Assembly (NCBI GenBank): GCA_002344005.1
Contig: DDTD01000098.1
Coordinates: 18,432 to 82,431 of the forward strand
Direction: 5' to 3'
Length of the DNA: 64,000 bases
From: Ignavibacteria bacterium UBA2373
Lineage (GTDB): Bacteria > Bacteroidota > Ignavibacteria > Kapaibacteriales > UBA961
The first letter of the stretch is position 1, and every line of letters begins with the position of its first letter. A program made the position numbers and the translations under genes. The notes below the pieces were generated by a model, which saw only the letters and a program-made list of their open reading frames with translations, was not told the origin of the DNA and ran no database searches. Below, in pieces: positions 41,789 to 54,219 of this stretch.

Positions 41789-42235
41789 TTGGACTATATT
41801 TATGCAGTGTTACATTGTCTTACATACAGAGAGTTCTTGAAAATTGATTTTCCGAGAGTGCCATATCCGAAAGACAAAGCCACATTTGCGAAATTGGTAA
41901 AACTTGGCGGTCAAATCAGAGAAATCCATTTATTGGAAAGTGCTGTAGTAGAAAATTATATAACGCAATATCCGATAGACGGTAATAATATGGTGGGGAA
42001 AGTGAAATATCACGATGGCAAAGTATATATAAATGAAAGCCAATATTTTGACAATGTTCCGCTTATTGCTTGGGAATTTTATATAGGCGGCTATCAACCT
42101 GCGCAAAAATGGCTAAAAGACCGGAAAGACCGCACACTTGATTTTGACGATATTCTCCATTATCAAAAAATTATAGTTGCTTTGTCAGAAACCGACCGTT
42201 TGATGAAAGAAATAGACCGTATAGAGATAGAGTGA
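41789..42235 (+). pseudogene. Orphan C-terminal fragment of a type ISP restriction-modification enzyme / N6-adenine methyltransferase (C-terminal specificity-domain remnant)
   Basis: YIYAVLHCLTYREFLKIDFPRVPYPKDKATFAKLVKLGGQIREIHLLE resembles the conserved C-terminal domain of LlaGI/LlaBIII-type type ISP enzymes (YIYAVLHSP.YR.KY...LK.DFPRIP). Only ~148 codons are present, with no upstream helicase or methylase portion. Confidence 0.45.
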
Positions 42236-42338: not shown

Positions 42339-43421
42339 ATGCTGAAAATAGATGTTCATGCGCATATCTTACCCCAAACATGGGATTCGCTCAAAGATAA
42401 ATATGGCTATGGCGGTTTTATCCAATTGCATCATCATCAGAAAGGGCGTGCGAAGATGATGCGCGATGATGGGACTTTTTTCCGTGAAATCGAGGAAAAT
42501 TGCTGGAATCCGACGGCAATATTGCATGATATGGATGCCCATAATGTGGATGTGATGGTGCTTTGTACCGTGCCCGTTTTGTTCAAATATTGGGCAAAGC
42601 CGGAACATACACTCGATTGGCATATCTTTTTGAATAATCATTTGGCGGAGGTGCAAAACTCCCATCCGCAACGCTTGGTGGGTTTGGGCACTATCCCCAT
42701 GCAAGACACAGATTTGGCAATCAAGGAATTGGAACGCTGCGTGAAGGATTGCGGTTTCCCCGGCATTCAAATCGGCTCTAATATCAATGGCAAAAATCTT
42801 GACCATCCCGACTTTTCCCCCATTTATCAGGCAGCGCAAGACCTCGGCGCATGTATTATGGTGCATCCTTGGGAAATGGCGGGAGCCAATCGTATGAAAC
42901 CCTATTTTATGGAATGGCTTGTGGGTATGCCCGCAGAGACCACTTTGTCCATTTGCTCGATGATATTTGGCGGCGTATTCGATCGCTTTCCTCGTTTGCG
43001 TGTATTATTTGCTCATGCGGGAGGTTCTTTTCCGTTTACTGTCGGACGCATCTCACATGGCTGGCATGCTCGCCCCGATTTGTGCGATATCCATCGCATC
43101 AATGATCCGCGCAGCTATGTGGACAAATTTTGGGTTGATGGCATCACCCATGATGATGATGCTTTGCGCTTTTTGTTGCAAGTAATGCCCTCACATAAAA
43201 TTGCCTATGGCACGGATTATCCTTTCCCTCTCGGCGATTTGGAGCATGGTAAGTTCATCGAACAAATGAGCGATTTGGATATTCTCACCAAAGAAGACCT
43301 TTTCCATCGCAGCGCACTGGGTTTTTTGGGATTGCCGGAACAACGCTTTCAACGTCGAAAAGCACAATCAGAGCAAGAAATTATTGCTGCACAGATTATG
43401 AGAACCTCGTCATTGAATTAA
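42339..43421 (+). CDS. 2-amino-3-carboxymuconate-6-semialdehyde decarboxylase (ACMSD; amidohydrolase_2 family)
   Basis: MLKIDVHAHILPQTWDSLKDKYGYGGFIQLHHHQKGRAKMMRDDGTFFREIEENCWNPTAILHDMDAHNVDVMVLCTVPVLFKYWAKPEHTLDW is nearly collinear with animal and bacterial ACMSD (MKIDIHSHILPKEWPDLKKRFGYGGWVQL...CWDP...VPVMFSYWAKPEDTL). Metal ligands His-x-His, His and Asp are conserved. Confidence 0.8.
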   Translation: MLKIDVHAHILPQTWDSLKDKYGYGGFIQLHHHQKGRAKMMRDDGTFFREIEENCWNPTAILHDMDAHNVDVMVLCTVPVLFKYWAKPEHTLDWHIFLNNHLAEVQNSHPQRLVGLGTIPMQDTDLAIKELERCVKDCGFPGIQIGSNINGKNLDHPDFSPIYQAAQDLGACIMVHPWEMAGANRMKPYFMEWLVGMPAETTLSICSMIFGGVFDRFPRLRVLFAHAGGSFPFTVGRISHGWHARPDLCDIHRINDPRSYVDKFWVDGITHDDDALRFLLQVMPSHKIAYGTDYPFPLGDLEHGKFIEQMSDLDILTKEDLFHRSALGFLGLPEQRFQRRKAQSEQEIIAAQIMRTSSLN

Positions 43422-43479
43422 TCGAATAATTCTTAATACGCTTTTTTACTATTTACCCATTCCTTCGAGATGGTAGTGC

Positions 43480-44151
43480 ATGAATGATTTTGCCGATAAT
43501 GAAAAAGAACTGATACTCTATTTGCAAAAAGGCGAATCAGCAGCATTGGAATATATTTATGACCATTATAGTGCTGCCCTTTATGGCATCATTGTAAAAA
43601 TTCTCAAAGGAAATAAAATTATTTCCGAAGATGTACTGCAAGAAACATTCATAAAAATTTGGACAAATAGAATCAAATACGATAGCTCAAAAGCTACGCT
43701 GTTTACGTGGATGCTGAATATTGCAAGAAATACTGCCATAGATACATTACGAAGTTCGGATTTTAATAGTCATTCAGTGAACCGTGTTTCCATAGATTCC
43801 GTACATATTGATGAGGAATTACATTCACCATCACCACAGTATGCTGAGGATATTATTCTAAAAGAGATATTGAATCAATTACCGCCGGAGCAAATACAAA
43901 TCATAGAACTTATGTATTATCAAGGATATACACAGACAGAAATAGCGACGCAGTATTCTATTCCGCTTGGCACGGTAAAATCACGTGCTCGATTGGCAAT
44001 TGAAACTCTAAGGAAAATACTTATCCATGACAGTAACATACTTTCCGGAACGTCTCCGCAATCATTTGCAGCGAAACAAACTCTCACTGCAATTATTGCA
44101 GTATTAACATCAGAAATAGTTGATATACCCACCTTGCAATCCACTCTTTAA
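43480..44151 (+). CDS. ECF-subfamily RNA polymerase sigma-70 factor
   Basis: Region 2 (YDHYSAALYGIIVKIL...ETFIKIW) and region 4 HTH (YYQGYTQTEIATQYSIPLGTVKSRARLAIETLRK). Confidence 0.8.
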   Translation: MNDFADNEKELILYLQKGESAALEYIYDHYSAALYGIIVKILKGNKIISEDVLQETFIKIWTNRIKYDSSKATLFTWMLNIARNTAIDTLRSSDFNSHSVNRVSIDSVHIDEELHSPSPQYAEDIILKEILNQLPPEQIQIIELMYYQGYTQTEIATQYSIPLGTVKSRARLAIETLRKILIHDSNILSGTSPQSFAAKQTLTAIIAVLTSEIVDIPTLQSTL

Positions 44152-44205: not shown

Positions 44206-45012
44206 ATGAATAGTACAATACATCCGGAAAATGAAGAACATAATCTCGAAGATGCTGCTGTCTATGCGCTTGGCGGAGCAGACATTGGCACGGAACAAGA
44301 GCAAATAAAAAAACATATCTCAGATGCCGAAGCTGTACTCGAAGCATTAGCGTCTGCACATGCTGTCAATCCTTCTCCATCATTAAGACCCCGATTACTT
44401 AATAAAATAATCGGCGGGAAACATTCATTTTCACAGATAATAACATTACAATCAAAAATAAAAAAATATCAACGTTACTCTATTGCCGCAAGTGTCATGT
44501 TCGCAATAACCGCTTCCGCAACACTCTATTACAAACAGTTGCATGATAATTCTAATGCAGCATTACACCTTGTCAAAGAAGAATTAGAAAAAACGAAAGA
44601 ATCGAGCTATGTGCTTGCAACAAAAGCCGATGTTTTAGACCAACGCATCCAATTAGTCACAAATCCTGATATTGTGGAAATATCTATGAAATCACCGAAG
44701 ACAGTGATAAGCCAACCATTACTTCGTACGTCAGTCTATTGGGATACAAAAGAAAATGCAGTGTTTTTGGAAGTCCAATCATTACCGGAAAACAATGATT
44801 CTACGGATTATCAACTGTGGGCAATTTCAGAAGGCAAGCCAAAAGATTTGGGGGTATTTCATTTCAAAAAATCACCATTTATTTTCAAAATGAAAAATAC
44901 CGATTCGGCAGATGCTTTTGCAATTACACTTGAAGAAAAAGGCGGAAAACCTTCGCCAACATTAGAAAATTTAACGGTACTCGGTACAGTATCATCACAA
45001 AATGGTGAATAA
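44206..45012 (+). CDS. Anti-sigma factor (RskA-like; N-terminal anti-sigma domain, single TM, periplasmic domain)
   Basis: Immediately downstream of the ECF sigma gene. AAVYALGGADIGTEQEQIKKHIS anti-sigma N-domain, TM segment YSIAASVMFAITASATLYY, C-terminal RskA-like domain (WAISEGKPKDLGVFHF...FAITLEEKGG). Confidence 0.6.
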   Translation: MNSTIHPENEEHNLEDAAVYALGGADIGTEQEQIKKHISDAEAVLEALASAHAVNPSPSLRPRLLNKIIGGKHSFSQIITLQSKIKKYQRYSIAASVMFAITASATLYYKQLHDNSNAALHLVKEELEKTKESSYVLATKADVLDQRIQLVTNPDIVEISMKSPKTVISQPLLRTSVYWDTKENAVFLEVQSLPENNDSTDYQLWAISEGKPKDLGVFHFKKSPFIFKMKNTDSADAFAITLEEKGGKPSPTLENLTVLGTVSSQNGE

Positions 45013-45016
45013 TCAT

Positions 45017-45055
45017 AAAAAAAAAGCCCTTGTTACAATGTTCCAAGGGCTTCAC
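45017..45055. terminator. Terminator between the anti-sigma gene (+) and the trHb-like lipoprotein gene (-)
   Basis: A9 run then GCCCTTG-ttacaatgttc-CAAGGGC hairpin. On the minus strand the hairpin is followed by U9. Confidence 0.6.
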
Positions 45056-45078: not shown

Positions 45079-45660
45079 TTATTGCTGAACAATATCCGCT
45101 TTAGTGGTATTGAGCAAGGCAACTAAATCATTAACTAACTGAGCATTATTAGCGGCAGTCACGCCATTTTTTGCCAATCCTACTCCGATATTACCAACAA
45201 AGGCATCAAAATCCGCTGCTGTAATTTTCATTGGAATACGTGAATTTTTAGCAGGATCATGTGCTGCTTTCATATCCAAACCTGAATATGTGTATGTTTT
45301 TGACCCTGTAGCCAAACACATAAAATCAGTAAAATTTTTACTTAATCTACTTAAACCGGTAGTATTTCCCGCGCCTAATTCAGCAAAAAGAACAGGAAAA
45401 TATTTTGCCATTTTGGGATCTGCTGCAATAACAAGAATAGAGCTATCCACAACGCTTCGAAGCGTTAATCGCCCTTTTTCAATCATTGTTGCCGGATTTG
45501 ACGGATCGGACACCATAGTAATTCCCCCCACTCTGTCATAGAGTGATGGTGTGGGTGTCGGTGCAGGGGTTGAAGTCTCTTCAGAACACGAAGCAAAAAG
45601 GACTAACCCGATTATACAAGATGCAGCACTCAAGTGTGCACGTTTTAACGAAAATTGCAT
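45079..45660 (-). CDS. Exported lipoprotein with truncated-haemoglobin (group 1 trHb)-like globin domain
   Basis: Lipobox MQFSLKRAHLSAASCIIGLVLFASC. Then SLYDRVGG...F...A.G.KTYTYSGLDMKAAH...ITAADFDAFVGNIGVGLAKNGV, matching trHbN landmarks (LY[DE][RK][IL]GG; F..A.GGP..Y.G..M...H; F......L.GV). A ~25-aa insertion follows the GG motif. Start moved to ATG 45660. Confidence 0.45.
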   Translation of the reverse strand: MQFSLKRAHLSAASCIIGLVLFASCSEETSTPAPTPTPSLYDRVGGITMVSDPSNPATMIEKGRLTLRSVVDSSILVIAADPKMAKYFPVLFAELGAGNTTGLSRLSKNFTDFMCLATGSKTYTYSGLDMKAAHDPAKNSRIPMKITAADFDAFVGNIGVGLAKNGVTAANNAQLVNDLVALLNTTKADIVQQ

Positions 45661-45724: not shown

Positions 45725-46240
45725 CTATTGAAATACTCCATGAATGGTAGCCGATACCTTCCGATAAAAAGAAAGCTGGTCGGCATTTACCGGACAACTG
45801 CCTGCTGTTGTGGGTTGAACTATATATCTTTGAGCATACGTACTTTGAGAATAAAGCCCTGAGTTTTTAACCAAACGATAAACACATTCACTTACCCCCT
45901 CATCACTGCTCATATATTGATGCAATAAGTTTTCTCTCTTTCGATCATAGACATACACCAAAATATTATCGCGTGTGTTCATATATACTGCAATAATGCC
46001 GGGTAAATTTTTTACAAAGGACTGAATGGCTTGTTGTTCTTGTGCTGTAAGATTTCCGTTGAAATCAATCCTTGCTAACTGATGTGTTGTATTGACCGAT
46101 GTCTCATCAGGCAAAGTCACAAAGTAAATATGAACGCACAGTGTGATACATAATCCCAAGACAATGGTCGAAAGTGCAATAATGTAATGTTTCGCCTTAA
46201 TCTTGGGTGCCGCTTTTGGGTGTTGTTGCAAAGATTCCAT
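45725..46240 (-). CDS. Hypothetical membrane-anchored protein
   Basis: 171 aa with a single N-terminal TM helix (YIIALSTIVLGLCITLCVHIYFV). No recognisable domain. Confidence 0.3.
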   Translation of the reverse strand: MESLQQHPKAAPKIKAKHYIIALSTIVLGLCITLCVHIYFVTLPDETSVNTTHQLARIDFNGNLTAQEQQAIQSFVKNLPGIIAVYMNTRDNILVYVYDRKRENLLHQYMSSDEGVSECVYRLVKNSGLYSQSTYAQRYIVQPTTAGSCPVNADQLSFYRKVSATIHGVFQ

Positions 46241-46600
46241 AGTTCTTATAGACTTGTGAATGAAATGTGTTCAATGCCTATACATACGCATGATGCTCAT
46301 AATCAGATCAGTAAAGAATGTATGTTTCCATTCTTAGCATACAATTTTTACATTTTTGACTACCAAACATCAAGTGAGGGAACGAAGAAAAGGCGGATTT
46401 TTCTTATTCGAGAACAAGGTATATGGCCTACCGGAAAGACAGAACTCTTGTAGGACTAAACAAAACATGGCGACACATCCTGCAAAAAAAGTGCACTTTC
46501 CCCATGTATTATCAAAACATTATATTAGACACACACACTTAATATTGGCATAACGCTAAGGTAATAATAGCTCGGTAATTTTGCGACCAAGTTCAAACTA

Positions 46601-49507
46601 ATGAAAGCTGCAAAATTGAAAATCCTTCTTACTCTTTGTTTCGGCATTGCTTTATGTGTTACCACCTCAATAACAGCCCAAGAAAATTCCGCTACTGTAC
46701 AAGGTAAAGTAACCGACGGCTCTACGGGTGATATTATGCGTAGTGTCACCGTTGAATTATTAACCAAAGAAAAACAAAGTACCAAAAAAGGTGCCTATTC
46801 GGATGTAACCGGAAAATACACAATAAAGAAAGTACAGCAAGGCGTATATTCTTTACGCTTCCGTTATGTGGGCTTTGAAAGCAAACTTATAGAAAATGTT
46901 GAAGTAGCTGCGGGCAAAACTGTGACAGTAAATGTGACATTATCGCCCGAAACAAAAAAATCTACCGAAGTAGTTGTCACTGCACGTGCCAATAAAGAAT
47001 CAAAAGAAGCAATTTTAGCACAAAGAAAAAATTCTGCCCAAGTAAGCGATGGCGTGAGCAAAGAAGAAATATCGCGTCTTCCCGATGCCGATGCAGGTCA
47101 AGCACTTAAGCGAGTTTCCGGTGTGACATTAGTGGGCGATAAATTTATTTATGTGCGTGGTTCAAGCGACCGTTACAGCAATACGACATTAAATGGCTCA
47201 ACCCTGACTTCGACCGAACCGGACAAACGTTCTTTCGATTTTGGTATGTTCCCGTCGGAATTTTTACAACAAGCGAATATTACCAAGTCATTTACGCCCG
47301 ATTTACCCGGTAATTTTGCCGGCGGCTTAGTGCAATTACAAACTATAGATTTTCCCGATGGATTTTCCGTAAAAGCATCGCTTTCCACATCGGGAAATAA
47401 TAATACACAAATAGGCGATAATATATTCAGCTCCTATCAAGGCGGCTCAGATGATTGGTTAGCACGCGATGATGGCACGAGATCAATGTCCTCAGCCACT
47501 CCCGGCAGCCGTGAAGATATCAATCGTTTATTATTGAATGCTCGTCGGCAAGATGCGCAAGGAGATTCTGCGCGCACTACCTTACAAAATTTTGCACGCG
47601 GATTTAATCAGAATGTCTGGACAAATAATAATTTTTCGGCTAATCCCAATACATCATTTGCGCTTTCATTTAGTAATTTATATGATGTTTTCGACAATGA
47701 TTTAGGTGTGATTGCATCGGTTAATTATGGTAATTCTTATGCCATTAATTCAATTGTACGCAGCCCCATTCTTGCCGACAAAGAATATCGTCAAGAAAAT
47801 GCGGGTTCTGTGTCCACACGTTCCGTGAATTATGGCGGTATGGCAAATATTGCCTATAAATTAGGAGGTCACAGCTCACTCAGTTTTAAAAATGTGTTTA
47901 ATCGTTCCGCCGATGATGAAACCACACTTTTGCAGGGCAGAGATATTCCGCAAGGTATTGATATTCGCCCATCGAGCTGGCAATTTGTGCAAAAAGAATT
48001 ATTTTCCACACAAGTCAATGGCGAACATACTGTACCGTTTGATAGTACGGCAATTATCTCCTCATTGCTTTTTGATTGGCGATTAGGATATTCACAATCC
48101 CTGCGCGATGAGCCGGATTTCCGTCGTTTGCGTTATTCGCGCCAATCGGTTGATTCGACATTACCGTTTACTGCCGATATACAACCCACACCGCAAGGTG
48201 ATGGCACGCTCGCCGGACGTTTTTATTCTTCATTAAATGATTTTGCCAGAAATGCTGCATTTAATATCGCATTACCTGTGTATCGTGATATGAAATTTAA
48301 AACTGGTTTTCTCACAGAAAATAAAAATCGTTATTTTTCTGCACGCTCATTTACAATTAATCAACCGACAAGCGGTGCTGATGTTGATATAGATTTTTCT
48401 GATACACCGGACAGTTTATTCCGAGCAGAAAATTTCCGTCAGGGTGGTTTGGGAATGTCCGAAGACTCTAAGCGCAGCGATTCTTATATTGCAGGTGAAG
48501 AATTATATGCCGGATATTTTATGATTGATGCACCTTTTTCTGTTGCGGGCGAGCAATTTCGGATTATCGGCGGCGCAAGAGTAGAAGATGCCGTTCAATC
48601 ACTTAATTCATTCGACACAGAAGGAAACCCCATCAATATTACATATGCAACAACAGATTGGCTGCCATCTTTTAATCTTATTTACAAAGCAACGGATGCG
48701 ATGAATTTACGTATGTCGGCAACACGCACATTAACCCGCCCTAATTTACGAGAATTTGCACCTTTTGCATTTTATGATTTCCAATCATTATTCGTTGTAC
48801 GCGGCAATCCGAATTTAGAGCGCACCTTAATTTCCAATTATGATATACGCTATGAATATTTCCCTCAGCCGGGCGAAGTCTTTTCTGTCAGTGTATTTTA
48901 TAAAAACTTTATTAATCCCATCGAAGAAACTATTGATCAAGTATCAAGTGAATATATACGCACATTTTCCAATGGACAAAGTGTTGATTCAACAGGTAAA
49001 AAAATAGCTGATGGCAATGCTTTTAATTATGGAGTTGAATTTGAAGCACGCAAATCCCTTGCATTTTTAGGTGATTATTTTCGCAATTTCGGCATTAATG
49101 CCAATGTATCTCTAATTCAATCAGAAATTACGGTATTGCAAGGCAGAACCGAAGATAAACGCAGTATATGGGGACAATCTCCGTATTCATTAAATATCGG
49201 ATTATTTTTTACGGAACCCGACTTAGGCACATCCGTCAATATTGGCTATAATCGCTATGGTCGCCGTATTGTTCAAGTTGGCTTGCGCGGTGCATTTGCA
49301 TTCGACGATCCTCATGTGTATGAGCAACCGCGAGATGTTATTGATATTTCCATTATTCAGCCATTATTAGACAATGCCTTTGAAGTTAAATTAGTTGCGC
49401 GCGACATTCTTAATCAAGAATTATTATGGCAACAAGGCGGCAAAACCATTGCTTCTAATTTGCGCGGCACAACTTTCAGTATAGGCATGAGCTACCGTTT
49501 TCGTTAA
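46601..49507 (+). CDS. TonB-dependent receptor with N-terminal carboxypeptidase-regulatory-like domain
   Basis: Signal peptide. CarbopepD_reg-like beta-sandwich (ATVQGKVTDGSTGDIMRSVTVELL...GKYTIKKVQQGVYSLRFRYVGFES). Plug (DAGQALKRVSGVTLVGDKFIYVRGS). 22-strand barrel ending ...TTFSIGMSYRFR. 968 aa. Confidence 0.8.
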   Translation: MKAAKLKILLTLCFGIALCVTTSITAQENSATVQGKVTDGSTGDIMRSVTVELLTKEKQSTKKGAYSDVTGKYTIKKVQQGVYSLRFRYVGFESKLIENVEVAAGKTVTVNVTLSPETKKSTEVVVTARANKESKEAILAQRKNSAQVSDGVSKEEISRLPDADAGQALKRVSGVTLVGDKFIYVRGSSDRYSNTTLNGSTLTSTEPDKRSFDFGMFPSEFLQQANITKSFTPDLPGNFAGGLVQLQTIDFPDGFSVKASLSTSGNNNTQIGDNIFSSYQGGSDDWLARDDGTRSMSSATPGSREDINRLLLNARRQDAQGDSARTTLQNFARGFNQNVWTNNNFSANPNTSFALSFSNLYDVFDNDLGVIASVNYGNSYAINSIVRSPILADKEYRQENAGSVSTRSVNYGGMANIAYKLGGHSSLSFKNVFNRSADDETTLLQGRDIPQGIDIRPSSWQFVQKELFSTQVNGEHTVPFDSTAIISSLLFDWRLGYSQSLRDEPDFRRLRYSRQSVDSTLPFTADIQPTPQGDGTLAGRFYSSLNDFARNAAFNIALPVYRDMKFKTGFLTENKNRYFSARSFTINQPTSGADVDIDFSDTPDSLFRAENFRQGGLGMSEDSKRSDSYIAGEELYAGYFMIDAPFSVAGEQFRIIGGARVEDAVQSLNSFDTEGNPINITYATTDWLPSFNLIYKATDAMNLRMSATRTLTRPNLREFAPFAFYDFQSLFVVRGNPNLERTLISNYDIRYEYFPQPGEVFSVSVFYKNFINPIEETIDQVSSEYIRTFSNGQSVDSTGKKIADGNAFNYGVEFEARKSLAFLGDYFRNFGINANVSLIQSEITVLQGRTEDKRSIWGQSPYSLNIGLFFTEPDLGTSVNIGYNRYGRRIVQVGLRGAFAFDDPHVYEQPRDVIDISIIQPLLDNAFEVKLVARDILNQELLWQQGGKTIASNLRGTTFSIGMSYRFR

Positions 49508-49563: not shown

Positions 49564-52500
49564 ATGAAATTATTTACTGCCGTGACAACCGCATTGCTGT
49601 TCTGGGGAGCAATGTCGAGTGTTCAGTCACAAACTGTGCAGCTTTTATCACCGGGTGGTTCACCCAATGAGAGTTATCGTGCAGGTAATTCCGTTGATTT
49701 GGTGTATCAAACATCACCCTCCACAGTGACACCTCGCCCGCGCTATCGCTTTGAATTCAGCACATCTCCGAACGGACCTTGGACTTCAATCTCAGGTGCA
49801 ACCAATGTGGTGGACAGTAATGCAAGCGGCACTGTTCGCGCAGGTCGTTTTATTGGTGCTTTTCGCATTCCGGCAACGCCAACAAATACGGGTTATGTTC
49901 GCCAAGTATTATTAAGCGATCCGTCAAAAACAAGTATCAGTCCTTTTCCCTTTAAAATCGAACAACCGCAAACAACACGCATAGACGAATTTTTACAAGG
50001 TGCTGTCGGTGCGGGCGAAACACGTACATTGACACGCGATAAAGTCTATGGAATTAAAGGATATTTCCACGTTGATAATGGCGGTACTTTAGTTATTGAA
50101 CCGGGAACTATTGTCGTTGGCGATCAAGTGGGTGTTAATAGTGCACTTGTCATCAATCGTGGCGGTAAAATTATAGCCGATGGCAGAGCCGATGCACCTA
50201 TTGTTCTTACAAGCAGTGCGCCTCCGGGCTTACGTGCTCCGGGTGATTGGGGTGGATTACTCATTTTCGGTAAAGCAGTTATTAATAATCCGGGCGGTGA
50301 AGCAGCTATGGAAGGCGGTGTTGCCGATCCGAATAATAAATCACGTTGGTATTATGGCGGTAATGATGATAATGATAATAGCGGAATATTGCGCTATGTG
50401 CGTATTGAATTCGGCGGTATTGCTTTGCAACCGAATCAAGAATTAAACGGACTTACATTAGGTGCTGTGGGACGTGGTACTATTATGGAAAAAGTACAGG
50501 TCAGCTATGCTAATGATGATGCTTATGAATGGTTCGGCGGCACGGTTAATGGCAAATATCTTATCTCAACTTCCTGCCTTGATGATGATTTTGATGCGGA
50601 TAATGGTTGGAGCGGCAAAGTACAATATGCCGTAGCTCAACGTTCAACCAATCGCGCCGACCAATCCACAAGTCAAGCATTTGAAACCGATAATGATGCA
50701 AGCGGCTCATTCCGAATTCCACGCACATCGGGTATATTTTCTAATGTGACAGTTATCGGTCCATTACAAGATGTTTCCGCCACACCGAATCCTCGATTCG
50801 GTGCAGCGGCGCAAATCCGACGCGCTTCTCTCTTATCCATCTATAATTCAATATTTCTCGGCTGGCCCCGCGGTATCGAAATTGCGCAAACGCCAACGAT
50901 GAATGCTGCATATAATGATACAGTTCAAGTGCGTAATTGTGCATGGTATGGCATAAAAACATCATGGCTTAATCTTGCGGGCGGTACTCCCCCATCGGGA
51001 ATGACAACATCGTGGATAAGCACAGGACGCTTCAATAATGTGAATGATGCATCGAATAATCCGTCTGCGGCATTACTCGAAAATCCTTTTTCGGATATAG
51101 CATTCAGTGCCGTTCCATTAGCAGGTTCTCCTGTATTGTCAGGTGCTTCCTTTGTTCGTGACGGTGTTCCGGCAATTGATGATTCATTTTTTGATAAAGT
51201 TTCTTTCCGTGGTGCATTCGGTAGTGATATGCGCTGGGATTATGGATGGGCAAATTATGATCCTGTCAATGCTGCCTATATCGCAGGCGCACCAACAGTT
51301 GCCGGAGCTTCATTACGTTTGACGGCACCTTCAACTGGACGCGTTTATGTGGCAGGTACAACAGCAACTATCGAATGGGACACCACCGGTACACGTGGTT
51401 TACGCTATAAATTCCAAACCGCTACTTCTATAGACGGTCCTTGGACAGATATTCAAGGTGCGGAGAGTATCACCGATGAAGGCAGTACACGCGGTCGCAT
51501 CGTCAATGGATATAAAGTGCCGTCCACACCATCAACCAATGCATATATTCGCATGGTTGCATTACGCAATGATGGTAGTATCAATACAGATGCATCCAGT
51601 ATTCTTGGACCTTTAACTATTGTTTCTTATACACTTACCTCACCCAAAGGCGGCGAAGTTTATCGTGCGGGATCACGTCAATTATTAGCATGGAAACAAG
51701 AACCACAAGGCGAATTAATCGGCACAGTCAAATTACGCTTCGAGTATGCAACATCTAATTCGGGACCTTGGACACCAATTCCGGGTGCAGAAATGGTCGA
51801 AGACAATGATGATAAAGTATTACAAGGCGGCTTAGTATTACCTCTTACCCAAACTGAAACTGCTTTTGTCAGAATGACCGTGCTTAATGAAGATGGCAGC
51901 CCTACAAGTATAAGTTCTACGAATGCACAGCCCTTCAAAGTTATCGGTATTCGCTTACTTTCTCCGGCAAGTGCTGCATCGCTCAAAGGCGGCAGCAAAG
52001 TGGACATTATGTGGGATACCACAGCAACAGCAGGATCACGCTTCCGTTTCCAATATCGCTTGAATGATACCGAACAATGGAATGATATCCAAGGGGCAAC
52101 GAATGTCTTAGACGCAGGTGCAAATCGTGGTAAAATTGTAGGCGGTTTTACCGTGCCAAATGTAGCCACAACAAACGGTTATGTTCGCATGACAGCACTT
52201 GCTGAAAATGGCAATCCTATTGAGGCTCTTTCCTCACAAAATGAACAACCATTTACTATTACAGTTGATAAACCCGTTGATGGCATCGTACGCATTATCA
52301 CTCCGGGTGCAGCAGCGGGCGAACGCTATCGTCCGGGACGCTCTTTAGATATTACCTATGATACAGTAGGTGGTTACCGTCGTCGCTATCGTTTTGAGTA
52401 TGGCACATCCGCCAATGGTCCTTGGACTGTCATTAAAGGTCTTGAAAATATTATTGACAGTAATAGAAGCAGCACACTTCGTCGCGGACGTATTACCGGA

Positions 52501-54219
52501 GGTTTCCTCGTGCCTGACCAGCTAACAAAAACAGCATATTTACGCATGGTATTATTATCGGATGAATCCAAAGTTGATATTACCGATAATCCTATCGAAA
52601 TATTCCGCCCGACAGCAAGTAAAGTGGATTCCGTTTTAAGCGGTTCTATCAATAAACGTGTATTTCTCTCTAACACTAAAATATATGGTTTACGCGGTTA
52701 TGTACACGTTGACAATGGCGGTGTTTTAGTCATTCAACCGGGTACAATAATTCTTGGTGATTCAGTAGGAAAAAATTGCGCACTTGTTGTGAATCGCGGT
52801 GGTAAAATTATCGCAAAAGGTACAGCAAAATTACCGATAGTATTTTCAAGTCTTGCAGCTCCGGGACAACGAGAATCCGGTGATTGGGGTGGATTACTAA
52901 TTTTCGGTAAAGCAGTTATTAATAATCCGGGCGGCGAAGCAGCTATGGAAGGTGGCGTTGCCGATCCGAATAATAAATCACGCTGGTATTATGGCGGTAA
53001 TGATGACAATGACAGCAGCGGTATTCTTGAATATGTCCGTATTGAATTTGCAGGACTTGCATTACAACCCAATCAAGAATTAAATGGCTTAACGATGGGT
53101 GGTGTTGGTCGCAAAACAGTAATGAATAATATTCAAATCAGCTATGCCAATGATGATTCATTCGAATGGTTCGGCGGTACCGTTAATGCAAAAAATATTA
53201 TTTCTATCGGTGCATTAGATGATGATTTTGATGGTGATAATGGCTGGAGTGGAAAAGTACAATTCGCTATAGCACAACGTCACCCTAACAGAGCAGATCA
53301 ATCCACAAGTCAGGCAATGGAAATGGATAATGATGCGAGCGGCTCAACACGCAAACCACTCACCTCCCCTATTTTTTCCAATATGACTGTAATCGGTCCT
53401 ATCAATGATACTTCCAAAGTGCCGAATCCTCGTTATGGTGCTGCCATACAAATACGTCGCAATGCCAGAACATCTGTTTTCAATTCAGCAATTCTCGGCT
53501 GGGGACGCGGAATGGAAATTGCACAAACTACAACGATGAATGCCGCAAAAAATGATTCCTTACAATTCCGCAATAATGCAATGTTCGGTATTCGTTCTAC
53601 TCTCTTAAATTTGGCAGGTGGCACTCCGCCGACAGGCATGACAACAGAATGGATTAATACTCCTGCATTTAATAATACAATGGATAAATCATCACCTCAA
53701 AAAGCAGGTTTACAAAATCCTTTCGAGATTGTTGAATTTAATCCTGCTGCAATGGAAAGTTCACCATTACTTAGCGGAGCAAATTTCACAAATAGTGGTA
53801 TTATTGCAATTGATGATGCCTATTTTGAAAAAGTACAATTCCGCGGTGCAATGGGATTACAACGCTGGGATGCAGAATGGACAGAATATGATCCTATTAA
53901 TGCTGAATATAAAGCACAACAAGCTCCGGTTTCTGTGAATGAAAACAGCATAAATACTTCTGATATTGTGGCATCGGTTTATCCGAATCCCACTCATGAT
54001 AAATGTATTGTGAAATATCAAACACGCAAAGACGGAATGGTAAAAGCACAATTTGTCAATGCTATGGGCGACATTGTTTCTACATTCTTTGCCGAGCAAC
54101 AACAAGCGGGATTTTATCAATTCAATATTAATGTTCAGGATATGCCAACCGGATTATATTTTGTTCGTATTGAGTCTGATAATAACACAATGACTATACC
54201 TGTATCAGTGTATAAATAA
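49564..54219 (+). CDS. Giant (1551 aa) T9SS-secreted protein with an internal ~870-aa duplication (two beta-helix-like modules plus multiple Ig/Fn3-like modules)
   Basis: Signal peptide. Two copies of the segment beginning HVDNGGTLVIEPGTIVVGD...GDWGGLLIFGKAVINNPGGEAAMEGGVADPNNKSRWYYGGNDDND (aa ~170-540 and ~1045-1420). Repeated ~100-aa modules SP..G..YRAG...D..Y.T...NGPWT.I.GA.N..D. C-terminal T9SS tail ...GLYFVRIESDNNTMTIPVSVYK. Confidence 0.6.
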   Translation: MKLFTAVTTALLFWGAMSSVQSQTVQLLSPGGSPNESYRAGNSVDLVYQTSPSTVTPRPRYRFEFSTSPNGPWTSISGATNVVDSNASGTVRAGRFIGAFRIPATPTNTGYVRQVLLSDPSKTSISPFPFKIEQPQTTRIDEFLQGAVGAGETRTLTRDKVYGIKGYFHVDNGGTLVIEPGTIVVGDQVGVNSALVINRGGKIIADGRADAPIVLTSSAPPGLRAPGDWGGLLIFGKAVINNPGGEAAMEGGVADPNNKSRWYYGGNDDNDNSGILRYVRIEFGGIALQPNQELNGLTLGAVGRGTIMEKVQVSYANDDAYEWFGGTVNGKYLISTSCLDDDFDADNGWSGKVQYAVAQRSTNRADQSTSQAFETDNDASGSFRIPRTSGIFSNVTVIGPLQDVSATPNPRFGAAAQIRRASLLSIYNSIFLGWPRGIEIAQTPTMNAAYNDTVQVRNCAWYGIKTSWLNLAGGTPPSGMTTSWISTGRFNNVNDASNNPSAALLENPFSDIAFSAVPLAGSPVLSGASFVRDGVPAIDDSFFDKVSFRGAFGSDMRWDYGWANYDPVNAAYIAGAPTVAGASLRLTAPSTGRVYVAGTTATIEWDTTGTRGLRYKFQTATSIDGPWTDIQGAESITDEGSTRGRIVNGYKVPSTPSTNAYIRMVALRNDGSINTDASSILGPLTIVSYTLTSPKGGEVYRAGSRQLLAWKQEPQGELIGTVKLRFEYATSNSGPWTPIPGAEMVEDNDDKVLQGGLVLPLTQTETAFVRMTVLNEDGSPTSISSTNAQPFKVIGIRLLSPASAASLKGGSKVDIMWDTTATAGSRFRFQYRLNDTEQWNDIQGATNVLDAGANRGKIVGGFTVPNVATTNGYVRMTALAENGNPIEALSSQNEQPFTITVDKPVDGIVRIITPGAAAGERYRPGRSLDITYDTVGGYRRRYRFEYGTSANGPWTVIKGLENIIDSNRSSTLRRGRITGGFLVPDQLTKTAYLRMVLLSDESKVDITDNPIEIFRPTASKVDSVLSGSINKRVFLSNTKIYGLRGYVHVDNGGVLVIQPGTIILGDSVGKNCALVVNRGGKIIAKGTAKLPIVFSSLAAPGQRESGDWGGLLIFGKAVINNPGGEAAMEGGVADPNNKSRWYYGGNDDNDSSGILEYVRIEFAGLALQPNQELNGLTMGGVGRKTVMNNIQISYANDDSFEWFGGTVNAKNIISIGALDDDFDGDNGWSGKVQFAIAQRHPNRADQSTSQAMEMDNDASGSTRKPLTSPIFSNMTVIGPINDTSKVPNPRYGAAIQIRRNARTSVFNSAILGWGRGMEIAQTTTMNAAKNDSLQFRNNAMFGIRSTLLNLAGGTPPTGMTTEWINTPAFNNTMDKSSPQKAGLQNPFEIVEFNPAAMESSPLLSGANFTNSGIIAIDDAYFEKVQFRGAMGLQRWDAEWTEYDPINAEYKAQQAPVSVNENSINTSDIVASVYPNPTHDKCIVKYQTRKDGMVKAQFVNAMGDIVSTFFAEQQQAGFYQFNINVQDMPTGLYFVRIESDNNTMTIPVSVYK

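Follow-up and report, generated by a model that had tools for sequence, protein, structure and literature searches.

We analyzed a 64,000-nucleotide stretch of DNA (hereafter, the window) from Ignavibacteria bacterium UBA2373 (assembly GCA_002344005.1, contig DDTD01000098.1, positions 18,432 to 82,431 of the forward strand), in which a two-gene operon on the minus strand codes for a predicted exported globin and a conserved companion. The globin gene (45079..45660, minus strand) has a 193-residue product with a predicted diverged domain of group-1 truncated hemoglobin (trHb), the 2-on-2 globin type. It is a real gene: its open reading frame (ORF) and translation coincide with the public gene call, which gives the same 193-residue product, identical to NCBI entries HRI30913.1 and MBK7987041.1. 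Both entries are named "group 1 truncated hemoglobin", and the fold assignment is therefore not new. The product starts with MQFSLKRAHLSAASCIIGLVLFASC and SEETSTPAPTPTP in succession, followed by SLYDRVGG, and the motifs singled out in a preliminary description of this DNA (LYDRVGG, YTYSGLDMKAAH and DFDAFVGNIGVGLAKNGV) are all present in the translation. A longer ORF beginning at 45786 and overlapping the upstream gene was rejected, as all homologs begin at the MKK/MQF position. The hosts of this globin family belong to the Fibrobacteres-Chlorobi-Bacteroidetes (FCB) group; all 50 of 50 species-level genomes are metagenome-assembled genomes (MAGs) of uncultured organisms, and the assembly names indicate wastewater, freshwater and groundwater habitats.

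Pfam and NCBIfam were silent on this protein, and its identification as a trHb was thus based on profile and structure comparisons. Neither the window protein nor P0059 nor the tandem form P0125 matched Bac_globin (PF01152, gathering score of 21 bits) at E ≤ 1. A single-sequence phmmer search against PDB was marginal (best match, Tetrahymena trHb1, E = 0.46). A profile built from 29 homologs matched PDB sequences of trHb1 from S. benthica (8uzu, E = 1.7e-4) and Paramecium (1dlw, E = 4.7e-3) and also that of Tetrahymena, and the aligned region extended from the E helix through the F8 His into the G helix. The AlphaFold2 model had a mean predicted local distance difference test score of 82 (approximately 90 in the mature domain). 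When this model was compared with PDB using Foldseek, the best 25 matches were all group-1 trHbs with target-normalized template modeling scores of 0.75–0.91; the top ones were trHbN structures (0.83–0.91), and group-2 and group-3 trHbs ranked after group 1. An hhalign comparison with HbN, Paramecium Hb (reference sequences that exactly match 1idr and 1dlw) and exported relatives that pass the Pfam Bac_globin model gave a probability of 99.9% (E = 2.5e-32), and these Pfam-positive relatives form a bridge from the window family to canonical globins. As modeled, the domain has a group-1-type 2-on-2 fold, with similarity far above chance, in agreement with the preliminary description.

Alignment to trHb1s allowed us to map the positions that surround heme in these proteins. 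The predicted proximal ligand is His134 at position F8 (codon 45259..45261, minus strand), located in the motif Y-x-G-x-x-M-K-A-A-H. As had been noted from the sequence, this His is conserved: it was assigned to F8 in every alignment, is invariant among the 29 aligned homologs and pairs with the F8 His of the Tetrahymena, S. benthica, M. tuberculosis and Paramecium globins. The proximal motif (Met130 at F4, His134 at F8) and the aromatic heme contacts (Phe88 at CD1, Phe113 at E14, Phe151 at G5) are canonical in these alignments. From this His motif and the fold we infer that the window globin holds a b-type heme on His134. The predicted distal pocket is wholly apolar, being lined by Ile75 at B10 (invariant), Leu106 at E7, Phe110 at E11 and Phe154 at G8; Ser74 occupies B9 and Cys115 occupies E16. 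The TyrB10/GlnE11 hydrogen-bonding network is missing, and a check of the heme pocket that named Tyr at B10 therefore found Ile instead, together with loss of the H-bonding distal site of O2- and NO-processing trHbN.

The AB Gly-Gly pair (G45-G46) is invariant; of the pair at the EF corner only G119 is, and the Gly after it is replaced by Ser, Cys or Ala. Between the AB Gly-Gly and helix B is a 17-residue insertion (residues 47–63; 45472..45522, minus strand), modeled as a β-hairpin with strands at residues 49–52 and 55–61; the aligned trHb1 sequences, canonical and canonical-like, all lack this segment. An insertion after this Gly-Gly had been predicted correctly, but its length had been overestimated at about 25 residues. 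Two additional insertions are characteristic of the family, one of extra residues in the CD-E region and the other, DPAKNSR, immediately past F8; it is at these two sites, and not in a long region preceding helix F as initially described, that the remaining extra length was found. The three insertions are probably the reason why Pfam misses this family.

The N-terminus is that of a predicted lipoprotein. Residues 1–24 form a putative signal peptide with a K/R-containing n-region and a hydrophobic core that ends in F-A-S-C25, where the lipobox Cys25 (codon 45586-45588; signal and lipobox, 45586..45660, minus strand) is followed by S-E-E-T and a TPAPTPTP linker. This assignment is pattern-based; the lipobox signal, which had been recognized previously, was supported by the presence of the Cys in all 29 aligned homologs and of [SA]-C in 120/120 closest homologs. 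The residues that follow the Cys also show a pattern: K or S at +2, K at +3 in 88/116 sequences (76%), D/E at +4 in 89/116 (77%) and D/E at +5 in 82/116 (71%), after which a Thr/Pro/Ser-rich linker of 10–165 residues is found in different homologs. Lauber et al. showed that a K-(D/E)2 export signal directs Capnocytophaga lipoproteins to the cell surface and that kindred signals of the S-D-D type occur in Bacteroides and Flavobacterium (PMC5080379). The family pattern agrees with the K-(D/E)2 lipoprotein export signal, and the C-S-E-E-T of the window protein is nearer to the B. fragilis S-D-D type. Location of the globin family on the cell surface is a reasonable prediction, least certain for the Kapaibacterium copy. 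The window globin is thus predicted to be exported and lipid-anchored, as proposed earlier, but the periplasmic location assigned to it may have to be replaced by the cell surface.

We further examined the occurrence of related proteins by searching 1.84 billion cluster representatives exhaustively with a profile (cut-off, E ≤ 1e-3), which yielded a clade of only 244 clusters. These include the 190-residue family of the window globin, tandem forms with two or three domains, an intermediate protein (P0218, 18.1 bits on Bac_globin), canonical-like exported proteins of about 160 residues and multi-globin proteins. The canonical-like exported relatives score 48–140 bits on Bac_globin and have signal peptides or lipoboxes (for example, P0198, P0211, P0239, P0240 and P0242). 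Residue statistics were based on 231 aligned domains, with smaller denominators at individual positions. The proximal side is nearly constant, with His at F8 in 177/179 domains and Met at F4 in 171/178; Phe is found at CD1 in 97/113 and at G5 in 152/174. On the distal side, B10 is Ile, Val, Leu or Met in 115/119 domains and Tyr in none (0/119), E7 is Leu in 148/167, and Gln occurs at E11 in only 3 of 170. A signal-like hydrophobic segment was present at the N-terminus of at least 103 of 113 full-length representatives, and the apparent signal-less exceptions are mostly truncated at the N-terminus, lipobox-bearing or Tat-like. As judged from these alignments, the window globin is a member of a distinct, systematically exported clade of trHb1 proteins with a predicted apolar distal pocket. 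That the proximal His is nearly universal across such deep divergence is the main argument that heme is still bound.

Several proteins in this clade contain multiple globin domains. The largest, P0196, is an exported protein of 1882 residues with 12 Bac_globin domains, and P0168, P0175 and P0178 have 3–5 tandem Bac_globin domains with signal peptides. The insertion-bearing lipoprotein family also has tandem versions (P0125, 515 residues; P0127, 358 residues; P0002, 337 residues), and in P0125 and P0127 every motif, the hairpin among them, is retained in each repeat.

What is, in our judgment, the most informative part of this locus was absent from the preliminary description. It is the gene directly upstream of the globin gene (45725..46240, minus strand), whose 171-residue product (HRI30912.1 and MBK7987042.1, "hypothetical protein") we designate the partner. 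It was found on the same strand in 56/56 loci that hold upstream DNA, the three loci without it ending at a contig edge, and in the five contexts measured 15–65 bp separate the two genes. The partner consists of an N-terminal transmembrane (TM) helix with His37, a heavy-metal-associated (HMA)/ferredoxin-like domain, a flexible loop and a C-terminal amphipathic helix, and its β-α-β-β-α-β order is that of a ferredoxin-like fold. We detected neither a CxxC or MxCxxC motif nor a Cys in the β1-α1 loop in this protein, and it had no Pfam match, to HMA or otherwise. Instead, an invariant Cys149-Pro150 (codons 45791-45796) lies in the low-confidence loop; each partner protein has exactly one Cys-Pro (CP) motif, whose Cys is usually the sole Cys of the protein. 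The net charge is +4.2 in the N-terminal tail and +1.4 in the flank that follows the helix, and 42/49 sequences fit an orientation with the N-terminus inside. His37 is located where the TM helix ends on the outer side; all 34 partner sequences of one alignment have it, and in another its conservation is at least 90%.

Detection of partner homologs required an alignment as query, a single sequence retrieving only 4 matches. The partner was also observed beside distant exported globin lipoproteins of the Pfam-positive or intermediate kind, P0242 (locus L060), P0218 (L061) and P0211 (L063), with CP kept. The pairing of globin and partner is therefore older than the divergence of the window family, and the Cys-Pro is its constant element. 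In two other loci, second partial matches to the partner profile were found just upstream of the full gene (L016, 5292-5414; L045, 791-1120), which are possible duplicated or decayed copies. Two specific roles for conserved partner residues were considered and rejected. One was a mixed disulfide between the partner Cys and Cys115 of the globin: a Cys at E16 is also found in Paramecium Hb, and many exported relatives with a partner either lack it or have it paired. The other was a bis-His heme held between two partner TM helices, as in cytochrome b559, which was dropped because distant homologs do not conserve the TM His.

A shared promoter-like motif precedes the operon. The family consensus, AAATCC[AG]-N15-CGTA(A/T)GT, was found 45–85 nt before the partner start in 35 loci, and the strict motif had only 66 matches overall in 1.3 Mb on both strands. 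In the window, the element (46281..46310, minus strand) reads tGATCTG-N15-CGTATGTA, with one mismatch in the −35 part (ATCTG), and is located 68 nt before the partner ATG, the same distance as in the closest relatives. The same motif was also found ahead of the distant L060 operon (1690-1720). It is unlike the sigma-70 hexamers targeted by the promoter scan, and its −35/−10 layout is the usual form of promoters recognized by extracytoplasmic function (ECF) sigma factors. At the other end, the operon is closed by an intrinsic-terminator hairpin (45017..45053, minus strand; GAAGCCCUUG...CAAGGGCUU followed by U8; fold of −18.9 kcal/mol, z = −3.2). This hairpin is located between the globin and anti-sigma genes, which converge on it, and was missed by the pattern scan because its loop exceeds 8 nt.

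Beyond this hairpin are an ECF sigma factor gene (43480..44151, plus strand; Pfam Sigma70_r2, Sigma70_r4 and Sigma70_ECF; best NCBIfam matches PRK12519 and SigK) and a gene for an RskA-type TM anti-sigma factor (44206..45012, plus strand; 268 residues; Pfam RskA_C, 7.9e-15; NCBIfam "anti-sigma factor"). The pair had been described as divergent from the globin gene, but it is convergent with the operon across the terminator, tail to tail, the anti-sigma gene ending at 45012 (plus strand) and the globin gene at 45079 (minus strand); the divergent neighbor is a TonB-dependent receptor gene. The link to sigma and anti-sigma genes nevertheless holds, in any orientation. When all flanking ORFs were clustered, an ECF sigma factor (17 loci) and an RskA-type anti-sigma factor (15 loci) were the only recurrent neighbors besides the partner; such genes adjoin the operon in approximately 19/52 loci, about a third of species, and do so in convergent, divergent, upstream co-directional and downstream co-directional orders. 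The occurrence of four gene orders favors a functional linkage over inherited synteny. Stretches of AATCG or TATCG, loosely like the −35 ATCC and lacking a CGTA −10, were observed upstream of the sigma genes in the window (43380-43479, plus strand) and in L011, L018 and L049; these could represent a different promoter or chance.

Other genes were noted in the vicinity. The TonB-dependent receptor (46601-49507, plus strand; CarboxypepD_reg, Plug and barrel domains) is divergent to the operon and faces the partner gene. The gene that follows it (49564-54219, plus strand) has a 1551-residue counterpart in near-identical contigs, with β-helix and Por_Secre_tail domains, the latter of the type IX secretion system. 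We considered these two as heme-uptake partners of the globin and rejected this idea, since they adjoin the operon in near-identical contigs alone, are missing from the other contexts and form no recurrent cluster. On the other side, an ORF at 41789-42235 (plus strand), whose counterpart in near-identical contigs has only a Type_ISP_C domain and which is absent from the related contig L001, is probably what is left of a Type ISP restriction-modification enzyme.

The reading that we favor, with a probability of about 0.55, is that the globin is a stress-regulated hemoprotein of the cell envelope and that the partner loads it with heme or otherwise handles this cofactor. Sec would export the pre-protein in unfolded form, Cys25 would be lipidated, and the Bacteroidota route would take it to the outer membrane, with the K-(D/E)2-type signal suggesting the cell surface. 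The b-type heme on His134 would be gained outside the cytoplasm: a globin that leaves the cytoplasm unfolded would have to receive its heme there. The partner may provide for this step, as a protein tethered to the inner membrane whose HMA-like domain would point outward and whose single invariant Cys-Pro is on a floppy tail. Cys-Pro is the classical transient heme-binding dipeptide. By analogy, the partner Cys thiolate would most likely bind heme transiently and pass it to the apo-globin, and the design of the partner would parallel that of the TM-anchored cofactor chaperones CcmE, Sco and Cox11, in which a membrane-tethered outward domain carries one thiol on a flexible tail. The holo-globin may then serve as an envelope stress effector under ECF control that buffers or scavenges NO, H2S, CO, O2 or heme itself. 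An NO dioxygenase mechanism of the HbN type is unlikely, since TyrB10 and GlnE11 are missing and no reductase is available outside the cytoplasm. With its aromatic, apolar lining, the pocket is reminiscent of Lucina HbI, which binds sulfide at a Phe-rich site; we regard this likeness only as a lead. A bolder form of this reading, in which the partner is a dedicated b-heme chaperone and the globin is displayed on the surface with an apolar "Phe-cage" that binds sulfide or NO under ECF stress control, is possible but rather unlikely.

Several observations weigh against the favored reading. The Pfam and NCBIfam scans of the globin protein, like those of the partner, returned only noise, with the Bac_globin and NCBIfam models without a signal. 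HMA folds normally handle metals, not heme, and the proposed role of the partner as a heme chaperone derives from architecture and analogy only; its TM His is absent from the L060 and L063 partners, whose TM segment is on the contig. The S-E-E-T of the window protein is a loose fit to a surface-export signal that is known outside Kapaibacteriaceae, and a globin flipped to the surface could have only transient contact with an inner-membrane partner. With regard to regulation, the window copy of the promoter motif has a low position weight matrix score owing to its −35 mismatch, and a search ahead of the adjacent sigma genes did not find the operon motif, a weak negative given that the sigma starts were crudely assigned; the adjacent sigma factor is accordingly only a candidate for reading the operon promoter. 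Finally, every host of the globin family is an uncultured MAG.

The association with sigma and anti-sigma genes could also be explained if the globin lipoprotein, possibly with the partner, were the ligand-sensing input to the RskA-type anti-sigma factor, such that a change in gas, heme or redox state alters its contact with the extracytoplasmic RskA_C domain and frees the ECF sigma factor. The globin fold is widely used in sensing, and the adjacency in approximately 19/52 loci in four gene orders would fit such a module, as would the fact that RskA_C domains have no known ligand (PMC7509140). However, about two thirds of loci lack adjacent sigma and anti-sigma genes, the strictly conserved companion is the partner and not the anti-sigma factor, and an ECF-like promoter motif on the operon itself is the trait of a regulated target. 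The predicted surface site would also part the globin from the anti-sigma domain, and we consider this explanation unlikely. The same surface site would instead suit a lipoprotein that captures or stores heme, similar to a hemophore or HmuY, for TonB-dependent uptake or detoxification. The surface-export-type signal and the divergently adjacent TonB-dependent receptor gene in the window agree with this idea, and Bacteroidota capture tetrapyrroles such as B12 by means of surface lipoproteins, according to published papers. Yet this receptor is adjacent only in near-identical contigs and is not among the recurrent neighbors, no heme-uptake genes are nearby, the regulator is RskA-type rather than the FecR-type usual for heme and iron uptake, and a partner working at the inner membrane would be unexpected for a hemophore. 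Such a role seems improbable.

The partner would be accounted for if the globin were an extracytoplasmic redox enzyme, reducing O2 or transferring electrons, to which the partner relays electrons from the membrane through its TM His and Cys. In line with this possibility, the TM helix of the partner has on its outer side a His that is invariant within the window family, and the periplasmic trHbs of cable bacteria are proposed to be alternative terminal oxidases. However, the TM His is lost in distant partner homologs in which CP is kept, a single TM helix without a cofactor-binding motif would be a poor electron conduit, and no gene for a cytochrome c or a quinol-oxidizing protein was fused or adjacent in any locus context examined. 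Moreover, an apolar pocket without TyrB10 and GlnE11 disfavors controlled activation of O2, and an enzyme of this kind has in our view only a slim chance of being correct. The composition of the pocket also raises the question of whether heme is bound at all, as the globin scaffold might have become a helical lipoprotein domain for another hydrophobic ligand or for a structural role. Globin-fold sensor domains that lack heme do exist, the Pfam and NCBIfam models have no match to the window protein, TyrB10 and PheB9 are lost, and the large Phe side chains at E11 and G8 might occupy the distal cavity. What makes this improbable is the proximal side: F8 His (99%) and F4 Met (96%) are kept across deep divergence, along with Phe at CD1, E14 and G5, a pattern hard to explain without heme.

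Comparison with known systems shows which features of the proposed stress-regulated heme protein and its partner are shared and which are particular to them. With group-1 trHbs (M. tuberculosis HbN 1idr, Paramecium 1dlw, S. benthica and Tetrahymena) the window globin has in common the 2-on-2 fold, the AB Gly-Gly, the Y-x-G-x-x-M-x-x-x-H motif and the residues Phe CD1, Leu E7, Phe E14, Met F4, His F8 and Phe G5. It differs from them in being exported and lipid-anchored (as predicted), in its three insertions and sub-Pfam score, in the replacement of TyrB10 by Ile, PheB9 by Ser and GlnE11 by Phe and the presence of Phe at G8, and in having an obligatory partner gene and an ECF-like promoter motif. 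The Pfam-positive exported Bac_globins, none of which has been characterized to our knowledge, are closer: they share the signal peptide or lipobox, the apolar B10, E7 and E11 and the F8 His, and those of the Bacteroidota type also share the upstream TM-HMA-like-CP partner and the promoter motif. Unlike the window family, they lack the three insertions, keep PheB9 and score 48–140 bits on Bac_globin, and they often have a Cys pair at E16 and EF that probably forms a disulfide. In comparison with TM-anchored extracytoplasmic chaperones for heme (CcmE) or copper (Sco1, Cox11 and PCuAC) and with the HMA-domain metallochaperones CopZ and Atox1, the partner has no MxCxxC motif and no Pfam HMA match, and its candidate ligand is a single Cys-Pro toward the C-terminus; it has no sequence relationship to CcmE, and cofactor binding by the partner is a proposal made by analogy. 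The sigma and anti-sigma pair resembles SigK/RskA (ECF18/19-type) in sigma regions 2 and 4 and in the TM segment and RskA_C of the anti-sigma factor, and mycobacterial mpt70/mpt83 represent a similar small adjacent target operon for envelope proteins or lipoproteins. Here, however, the target would be a globin lipoprotein operon, and no copy of the shared promoter motif was detected ahead of the sigma genes.

TrHbs have been studied almost wholly as soluble cytoplasmic proteins whose chemistry depends on the TyrB10/GlnE11 network. The view that an exported trHb would be unusual has to be qualified, as predicted cases are known both among database Bac_globins with signal peptides or lipoprotein signals and in cable bacteria. 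In the latter, periplasmic trHbs (lPHCtX fusions) were postulated to be O2 reductases (Kjeldsen 2019, cited in PMC11976967). They share with the window globin a predicted extracytoplasmic place and a proposed non-classical role, but they are fused to or located beside pentaheme cytochromes c, and no link to an HMA-like partner or a lipobox is reported for them. In window-family loci, no cytochrome c was fused or adjacent in the contexts examined and none was among the recurrent neighbors. A full-text literature search, in which the only exported trHbs discussed were those of cable bacteria, found no description of a systematically exported trHb1 clade with an apolar pocket, of its lipoprotein or surface-export signals, of a conserved HMA-like Cys-Pro partner, or of an ECF-like promoter motif or sigma/anti-sigma association.

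Taken as a pair, the globin and its partner are, we infer, a heme module of the cell envelope and not an ordinary cytoplasmic globin, which has escaped experimental attention because all of its hosts are uncultured MAGs. If this is correct, bacterial globin biology would reach to the envelope or the cell surface, and ECF/RskA-type systems would gain a physiological output. The delivery of non-covalently bound heme beyond the cytoplasm, a long-standing gap, would become directly testable in a simple two-gene system. Should the partner prove to be a chaperone and the globin to be displayed on the surface, this would be the first defined maturation system for an exported b-type hemoprotein and the first surface-displayed bacterial globin.

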